Shown one piece after another: positions 34,345-35,156 of a stretch of DNA of 64,000 nt (position 1 is the stretch's first letter; each line of letters begins with the position of its first letter). The notes under the pieces are model-generated. The model saw only the letters and a list, made by a program, of their open reading frames with translations. It did not search any database and was not told where the DNA came from. The translations under genes were made by a program, and so were the position numbers. This DNA comes from Octopus sinensis (lineage: Eukaryota): assembly GCF_006345805.1 (NCBI RefSeq), contig NC_043019.1:11221360-11285359 (forward strand), written 5' to 3'.

Positions 34345-34417
34345 ATCTTCATAGCTCAATGTTTAGAGCACTGGTCTTGTAAACCAGGGGTTGTGAGTTC
34401 GATTCTCACTGGAGGCT
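34345..34417 (+). pseudogene. tRNA-Thr(TGT) copy, probably a retro-pseudogene, followed by trailer, T5 and LINE-type tail (to about 34500)
   Basis: D arm gctc/gagc; anticodon arm ctggt-ctTGTaa-accag; T arm gtgag-ttcgatt-ctcac; 5' acceptor strand and D-loop GG damaged. Confidence 0.85.
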
Positions 34418-35156
34418 TTGGTTACAATTTTTAAATGGTGGTGCCCCAGCATGGCCACAGCTCGTGAGCTGAAATTAGATGAAATAAAAAATTTAAAAAA
34501 TGAAATAATTACACACACACACATGTATCTTTTGTTCTTTACTTGTATCAGTCATTAGACTGTGGCCATGCTGGGGCACTGCCTTGAACAATTTTAGTCA
34601 ACTGATTTGACCCCGGTACTGTTTTTTTTTTCTTCAAGCCTAGCATTTAGTCTGTTGATCTCTTTTTGCTGAACTGTTGAGCAATGGGGATGTAAACACA
34701 CCAACACTGGTTGTCAAGTGGTGGTGGGGAACAAACACAGACCCAATGACACACACACACACATAGATGTATATACGACAGGCTTCTTTCAGTTTCCATC
34801 TTCACTCGCAAGGCTTTGGTCAGCTTGAGACTATAATAGGAGACACTTGCTCATGGTGCCATGCAATGGGACTGAACCTAGAACCTTCCCCCCAAATTTT
34901 AGGCTTTGTGCCTACAGTAGAAAGGATTATTATTATTTTATTGTCTGGGGAGAGTCATTCTCCTTTAGTTCCTTATTATTTAACACACTCACTGGTTCAA
35001 TTGCCAGCGAGTGGAAATCAAACCGGTGAGTGTGTTAAATAAGACACTAAAAGAGAATGGCTCTCCCCAGACACAACAAAATATGCTTCAAGACATGAAT
35101 TCACATAAAGAAACTTGCAACAAACCAAGTACAAAAACGAAATTATTATTATTATT

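Follow-up and report, generated by a model that had tools for sequence, protein, structure and literature searches.

Structure of the tRNA-Thr copy and its locus

We analyzed a stretch of 64,000 nucleotides (nt) from Octopus sinensis, here called the window, and use its numbering throughout. Our subject is a copy of tRNA-Thr(TGT) at 34345–34417 that runs through a short trailer and a T-run into the 3' end of a long interspersed element (LINE). A preliminary description had read this segment as a tRNA, its trailer, a TTTTT stretch resembling an RNA polymerase III (Pol III) terminator, and an A-rich end, and the sequence, ARAGORN, and Rfam all bear this out. The features of the locus are given below; loci elsewhere carry L numbers of our own.

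34194..34278, + strand: host exon upstream of the insertion (splice-site letters and open frame; covered by a contig of a diverged organism)
34345..34417, + strand: tRNA-Thr(TGT)-derived head, likely a pseudogene (Rfam, 59.6 bits; ARAGORN call)
34418..34427, + strand: 3' trailer of the precursor tRNA (pre-tRNA), 10 nt, without CCA, resembling the trailers of gene L152 and copy L153
34428..34432, + strand: T5, read from the sequence as a copy of the Pol III oligo(U) end; the junction
34433..34474, + strand: last ~42 nt of the 3' untranslated region of a LINE, subfamily A (two differences in 47 letters from LINE copy L148; fold)
34436–34457 and 34458–34471, + strand: hairpins 1 and 2 of this tail (fold; pair counts)
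34475..34506, + strand: A-rich terminal repeats of the LINE (ATGAAAT-type) and 3' end of the insertion; LINE copies L038 and L058 have the same terminal type
35691..35795, + strand: next host exon, with a DEAD_2 domain of an XPD-family helicase (PF06733, 39.8 bits; translation)

The insertion lies in sense, about 65 nt into an intron of the XPD-family helicase gene, which we take to be RTEL1-like. A contig of organism B covers 34173–34390 with zero differences, and the insertion is therefore common to that organism. A contig of the more distant organism F fits 34173–34352 and then departs with 72 further letters. This is a hint, from one contig only, that the site is empty in organism F and that the 5' join used microhomology; the first ~5–8 letters of the head may be flanking DNA joined in this way. 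Compared with the intact Thr gene L152, the head differs at 8 of 73 positions, three of them within the first five. One difference removes a G from the D-loop GG, the first acceptor pair is mismatched, and the copy lacks the intact acceptor stem and A box of a functional tRNA gene. These eight differences and the lost D-loop G make it likely that the copy is inert. It is the most diverged among the copies that share its Thr trailer type.

Precursor heads and the LINE tail across the genome

The tail itself is abundant. In this genome of 2.72 Gb, which is rich in microsatellites, a 33-letter pattern from the tail is matched exactly 3,292 times, and the tail core occurs 19 times in the window at ≤3 mismatches (0 in 100 shuffles), mostly at the ends of short interspersed elements (SINEs). 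Because the core is so common, a single tRNA next to a tail is weak evidence; the genome-wide counts exceed chance. We searched the genome for a B-box followed within 15–45 nt by the subfamily A tail (tail A) and obtained 100 matches, of which 92 were examined; the other eight repeat a duplicated non-tRNA unit found in four examined ones. Heads derived from tRNA made up 78 of the 100 matches, and 14 of the 92 were non-tRNA. The preliminary description had expected many more isotypes genome-wide and had proposed to count isotypes and junction positions, with one or two amplified families or chance adjacency as the outcome that would speak against recurrent capture. Our counts show the expected breadth: the 78 heads cover 19 amino acid classes, Sec included (by Rfam), and have 76 distinct trailer cores, and no pair has both flanks in common. 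The CCA end is absent from all 78, the median trailer is 13 nt, and the junction shows three or more T in 64 and four or more in 52. One or two extra letters stand at 12 of the junctions. All 78 keep 0–3 LINE letters upstream of the tail anchor, a count to which the search pattern is biased.

Several tail subtypes take part. For tail C, 15 of 22 matches are tRNA heads, and for tail B 13 of 17 (by eye). Selecting instead for tails preceded by T4, we found among 100 of 268 matches 54 distinct loci, with 29 tRNA, 5 5S rRNA, and 4 U6 heads (mostly by eye); Rfam confirms all five 5S rRNA heads and one of the four U6 heads. Many of the tRNA heads selected in this way are just 10–20 nt long. In tails unselected for T, 3 of 72 carry Pol III heads; scaled to ~7,000 tails, this fraction would, as a rough figure, put the Pol III heads at a few hundred for tail A by itself. 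The exact-match patterns miss old and truncated copies. Model-based scans also undercount, since ARAGORN called 0 tRNAs in the first 30 tail loci, one of which (L036) was later shown to have a short tRNA-Leu 3' fragment. Relaxed ARAGORN settings misassigned truncated heads, and isotypes were therefore relabeled by BLAST against whole heads and by eye, so that single labels may be wrong. At default settings, ARAGORN called 66 of the 93 tail-A and tail-C tRNA heads as whole tRNAs, in line with the earlier expectation that such copies inflate tRNA gene counts.

The heads keep leader and trailer, are without CCA, and are either intron-bearing or spliced, which identifies the donor as pre-tRNA. In a survey of Lys-TTT (100 of 104 matches, compared in fetched DNA), all 82 distinct clustered genes had an intron and none had a retroelement partner, whereas 25 of 35 dispersed copies had such a partner and 9 were intronless. 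The intron-bearing gene L257 corresponds to an intronless copy, L221, with 15 identical trailer letters followed by tail A; gene L250 corresponds to the intron-bearing copies L251 and L253 and the intronless copy L245, joined to other elements. Introns are also retained in Met, Ile-TAT, and Leu-CAA heads (by eye; the Met head is L087). We did not count L140 and L068 as proof of splicing, because the partnerless intronless Lys loci L242 and L244 could be real genes. One Thr trailer type occurs in the untailed gene L152 and in eight other copies joined to six different partners, and the whole heads of this type keep a leader of 4–6 nt and no further flank. The copies thereby record the order of pre-tRNA processing, with splicing done while the trailer was still attached.

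The Lys(TTT) clusters lie in assembly G000 at 34.5–34.97 Mb of contig C6 and at 0.65–0.69 and 21.96–22.05 Mb of C10, and all 82 introns are 11–21 nt long. Introns in Lys and Met tRNAs are unusual compared with vertebrates. Beside the Thr(TGT) gene, L152 holds a tandem tRNA-Thr(AGT) array (1732–3019) with a period of ~152 nt, and a small contig, C10280, has a dense Thr(TGT) cluster (L017–L030).

Ten of the 30 first-listed tail loci extend upstream into a common sequence that codes for an endonuclease and a reverse transcriptase (RT); an APE endonuclease domain (PF14529) and an RT domain (PF00078) lie in one open reading frame region. Among 120 listed protein relatives, the only informative names were two bird proteins (30–31% identity) and one tapeworm protein. 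Bird LINEs are CR1 in the literature, and on this link the partner is probably CR1-like. The tail folds as two hairpins, and a 3' stem-loop followed by short terminal repeats is present, as in CR1-clade LINEs. In 10 related tails, 92% of cells are paired and 3 of 13 pairs are changed on both sides, counts that come from related sequences from which the structure itself was drawn.

The LINE side of the chimeras usually begins at the base of hairpin 1, and 40–47% of the sampled copies of two LINE subfamilies also end there. For tail A, we judged by eye the first 72 distinct loci among 3,415 one-strand matches: 38 extend into the LINE by 60 nt or more, 26 consist of the tail alone and start no more than a few letters from the hairpin 1 base, 5 belong to a SINE family joined at the same point, and 2 tRNA 3' fragments and 1 U6 make up the rest. 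For subfamily B (the first 100 of 1,702 matches, by eye), 58 extend, 41 end at or in hairpin 1, and 1 ends within the 45 nt that follow. The sister subfamilies, B and C, have the same terminal structure with different letters, and by these comparisons the truncation boundary tracks structure and not letters. In L302 and L303, the first 18 tail letters are repeated two or three times. Such repeats are expected if the enzyme slips back at a template end, and they fit either a real RNA end or a strong stall. Unlike in human U6/L1 chimeras, the LINE part found by this pattern is not truncated at variable positions; L326 and L217 are exceptions.

Apart from these, L153 and L333 have a fifth short tail with a hairpin of its own and an (ATT)n end, and a young-looking tRNA-type SINE family (L306–L310) is joined to tail A at the chimera junction point.

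Several of the other heads are of interest in their own right. A clustered multicopy gene family of ~90 nt (L323–L341; 45 matches) with A-box-like and B-box motifs and a T-run was detected through its capture as a head; it lies in G000 at 10.6 Mb of C24, 7.6–24.1 Mb of C26, 4.39 Mb of C29, and other sites. The captured copies tested have no Rfam match; the size and boxes are reminiscent of vault RNA. Sequences ending in a T-run also precede tail A in L278 (a long hairpin), L279, L316, and L188 (tRNA-like), and Rfam gives no family for L278, L279, or L316. One unit of a non-tRNA head and tail A has 12 copies in G000 (C27 at 8.2–15.9 Mb, C28, and small contigs; L133–L135, L150) and was probably spread by segmental duplication. 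In L318, a tRNA-Ser head is separated from the tail by ~75 nt of trailer that continues beyond earlier T-runs, a pattern that suggests terminator read-through. Finally, pre-tRNA heads in L213, L218, L245, L151, and L156 are joined at varying points to another repeat family with a (GAT)n-type end, and a second retroposon system may be doing the same.

Mechanism and rival explanations

Together, these data indicate that the copies are almost certainly LINE-made chimeric retrocopies of precursor RNA, and that the head–tail join was probably made by end-to-end template jumping. For the copy in the helicase intron, we propose a one-off chimeric retrocopy of a pre-tRNA and the last ~45 nt of a CR1-like LINE, produced when the RT ran to the end of a short stretch of its LINE RNA and jumped onto the free oligo(U) 3' end of the Pol III transcript, with a probability of roughly 0.7. 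By analogy with CR1 and L2 elements in the literature, the LINE protein would bind the two-hairpin 3' end, a structure that folding and pair counts support, and would prime at A-rich or microsatellite DNA. Synthesis would then stop, as is very often observed, 0–3 nt past the base of hairpin 1, either because the template is a discrete short RNA or because the enzyme stalls. The end of the complementary DNA (cDNA) would usually be joined directly to the target, giving the bare ~50-nt insertions that we see, and in a few percent of events it would first move onto the 3' end of another RNA. A non-templated A pairing with the terminal U, as inferred from group II intron and R2 enzymes, would explain the bias toward Pol III transcripts. 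Copying of the head would reach the leader or break off earlier, and now and then a second jump would follow; each of these outcomes is seen as a structure. The product would mostly be inert, and a rare terminator-free copy could found a SINE.

The preliminary description had offered template switching, RNA ligation, or LINE insertion at tRNA terminators. We favor jumping over ligation because of the three-part chimeras and the joins to SINE 5' ends. Pre-tRNA heads are joined to LINE tails, to internal SINE parts, and to SINE 5' ends, and in L333 and L334 a Pol III-like RNA with its T-run is followed by a tRNA and then by the tail; the tRNA is a Leu that has its leader and intron in L333, and an Asp in L334. 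From their sequence, serial end-to-end jumping fits the three-part loci directly. Pol III transcripts begin with 5' triphosphates, pre-tRNA and 5S rRNA end in a 3'-OH, and, with the exception of U6, one would not expect a primary Pol III transcript to carry a cyclic phosphate together with a 5'-OH. Ligation of a pre-tRNA to a cleaved LINE 3' fragment by RtcB or a similar enzyme, followed by retrotransposition, is an unlikely source of the copies, since RtcB requires both groups (PMC6789731) and, at the joins with a SINE 5' end or a pre-tRNA leader, the primary transcript would have to carry a 5'-OH. The near-fixed LINE junction would suit an endonuclease cut that leaves a 5'-OH, spliced pre-tRNAs have met tRNA ligase, human U6/L1 chimeras set a precedent (PMC6789731), and U6 is among the heads, albeit with 4 cases against 34 tRNA and 5S heads. 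A somewhat smaller chance falls to separate copying of the parts with joining at the DNA level during 5'-end repair, by capture of pre-tRNA cDNA or by RNA-templated end joining. The strong 5' truncation of many heads, down to 10–20 nt, the extra junction letters, and the rarity of clean target-site duplications would all suit repair; in the sets examined, however, head and tail always point the same way, and the head stops at the T-run (the pattern finds only same-sense heads), whereas human twin-priming tRNA/L1 chimeras are mostly antisense halves (PMC11838501).

It is highly improbable that the LINE selects tRNA gene terminators in the genome as insertion sites and that read-through or copying follows. 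Copy L153 does lie 5 kb from gene L152 beside the Thr array, and L137 has a tRNA-Ala just upstream, both possibly real genes with an insertion. As a rule, however, the absence of partners from the clustered Lys-TTT genes and their frequency on dispersed copies argue against such targeting, as do the truncation or splicing of the heads and the fact that no more than a few leader letters are common to head and gene. Least credible of all is an origin from one or two ordinary amplified SINE families or from chance adjacency to a very common repeat end. The frequency of the tail core in the window, the use of the same junction by the SINE family L306–L310, and the duplicated non-tRNA unit (12 of the 100 pattern matches) are compatible with it, but the 76 trailers, 19 classes, and several tail subtypes are not. 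For ~7,000 tail-A copies and an assumed few thousand tRNA-like sequences, less than one same-sense tRNA end within 45 nt is expected by chance. The copies have no single head–body–tail consensus of the kind that defines a tRNA-derived SINE, and in the window the terminator T5 (34428–34432) separates head from tail.

Several observations weigh against template jumping from this tail. Fewer than three T stand at 14 of the 78 junctions, L326 joins ~45 nt further up the LINE, and L217 joins the endonuclease region of a related LINE; these two came from head-centered samples, and the B-box and tail pattern detects only near-tail junctions. Target-site duplications, which the preliminary description had named as a check, gave a weak signal: shared words of 7 nt or more flank 25 of 66 copies against 13.2 in shuffles (maximum 21), and these counts are inflated by microsatellite targets. 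The duplications are clear in L062 and L004 and weak at the copy in the helicase intron. A search for the exact source gene of that copy returned nine matches, none exact but the copy itself. For U6 in human cells, ligation rather than jumping has been demonstrated (PMC6789731). The CR1 assignment comes from domains and the two named bird matches, and the evidence as a whole is genome sequence and contigs.

More tentatively, and with somewhat less than even odds, the LINEs may shed a discrete ~50-nt two-hairpin RNA that serves, bound to the RT, as a capture adaptor relaying onto any free Pol III 3' end. If so, the genome would preserve, as a library of fossils, the Pol III precursors transcribed in the germ line, with their start sites, terminators, splicing order, and unannotated RNAs. 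It would also hold a standing pool of proto-SINEs, which would explain why several SINE families share this tail from the same point.

The idea of a general pre-tRNA capture system stands insofar as capture is recurrent, spans many isotypes, and extends to 5S rRNA and U6; the system is not a new one but a variant of known chimeras of small RNAs and LINEs. As in that class, the join is in sense to a 5'-truncated LINE 3' end and lies at an oligo(U) end, the copies are independent, and spliced copies of intron-bearing genes indicate an RNA intermediate. U6/LINE chimeric retropseudogenes are known as platypus U6-L2 and U6-Mon1 and as lizard U6 joined to L1, L2, RTE, and SINE (Doucet et al. 2015, PMC4476161). 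In them, too, a small RNA with a terminal T-run continues in sense into a short 3' part of a LINE or SINE, heads are often 5'-truncated, and target-site duplications are short or absent; template switching was proposed for them. Here, by contrast, the donors are mostly pre-tRNAs of nearly all classes, with 5S and U6 besides, and the junctions cluster at a single point of the structure. The U6/L1 chimeras of human cells, which form through RtcB ligation (Moldovan et al. 2019, PMC6789731), also have 4–8 T and then a 5'-truncated LINE. Their L1 junction varies and their formation requires a cyclic phosphate; in the present set, most donors would be expected to end in a 3'-OH, and some chimeras have three parts. 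Human tRNA/L1 chimeras (Law and Burns 2025, PMC11838501) share the co-insertion of tRNA sequence with a LINE, but their 21 loci are mostly antisense tRNA halves, as against the sense, 3'-complete precursors with trailers found here; the words "trailer" and "precursor" are absent from the main text of that paper.

A tRNA head with a CR1 3' hairpin tail is also found in passerine TguSINE1/PittSINE (PMC5729268) and in bivalve SINEs with CR1 stem-loop tails (PMC4824008, PMC4758252), for which head exchange by template switching was proposed. Those are amplified families whose founding event is inferred, in contrast to the many unamplified founding-type events with source trailers described here. 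The RTs of R2 and of group II introns pass from the 5' end of a template to the 3' end of the next, with a one-base non-templated overhang pairing with the last base of the acceptor. R2 insertions pick up cellular non-coding RNA as well, although the RNA captured in R2 transgene work is almost always U6, and jumping by the present LINE is proposed by analogy. Mammalian tailless and pre-tRNA retropseudogenes (Schmitz 2004) share the use of pre-tRNA as a retrotransposition template but have no LINE-derived tail. We found no account of genome-wide pre-tRNA/LINE-tail chimeras or of cephalopod cases in the open-access literature, a scope outside which most subscription papers, Repbase, and Dfam fall, and the accessible parts of Kojima 2015 and 2010 describe no such chimera set. 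The class is thus already known through the U6/LINE chimeras; in that literature we found neither this breadth nor the pre-tRNA donors and the near-fixed junction.

Most SINEs are proposed to begin with the transfer of a LINE 3' end onto a tRNA, a step usually deduced from finished families. In this genome, many of its products have stayed unamplified and still show their source trailers, introns, and junctions, which makes the step countable and its mechanism testable. The copies also reveal a Pol III-like gene family that lacks annotation, and they are themselves mistaken for tRNA genes. The preliminary description had expected them to generate new SINEs; few would act as such, because most keep a Pol III terminator before the tail, where transcription would end. 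In a 2026 repeat annotation of Octopus vulgaris, 893 SINE families are recently active but unclassified, and they have only 4,510 insertions (PMC13282606). Some of these families could be explained by one-off chimeras like those described here, and the repeat library of that study may contain such units.

The tRNA-Phe copy and other elements of the window

The window contains a second chimera, with the following parts.

12323..12391, + strand: tRNA-Phe-derived head (Rfam, 34 bits)
12392..12413, + strand: Phe trailer and T-rich junction; the same trailer meets tail A in L141
12414..12472, + strand: tail of LINE subfamily C and A-run; the LINE-C body lies upstream of the same tail in L161

This copy had been described as having the same architecture as the Thr copy. 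The head, trailer, T-rich stretch, and following tail agree with that description, but the tails come from different LINE subfamilies, C here and A in the Thr copy. An Rfam scan of the window returned tRNAs only. The idea of the tail as a ribozyme (hammerhead or HDV-like) was considered and dropped, and PMC8501958, which deals with ribozymes at 5' ends, was set aside. Bare or variant tail insertions without a tRNA head lie at 13627–13680, 28594–28643, and 46288–46336. Further along, positions 57377–59437 hold a 22-nt tandem repeat of ~92 copies with a strong strand skew.
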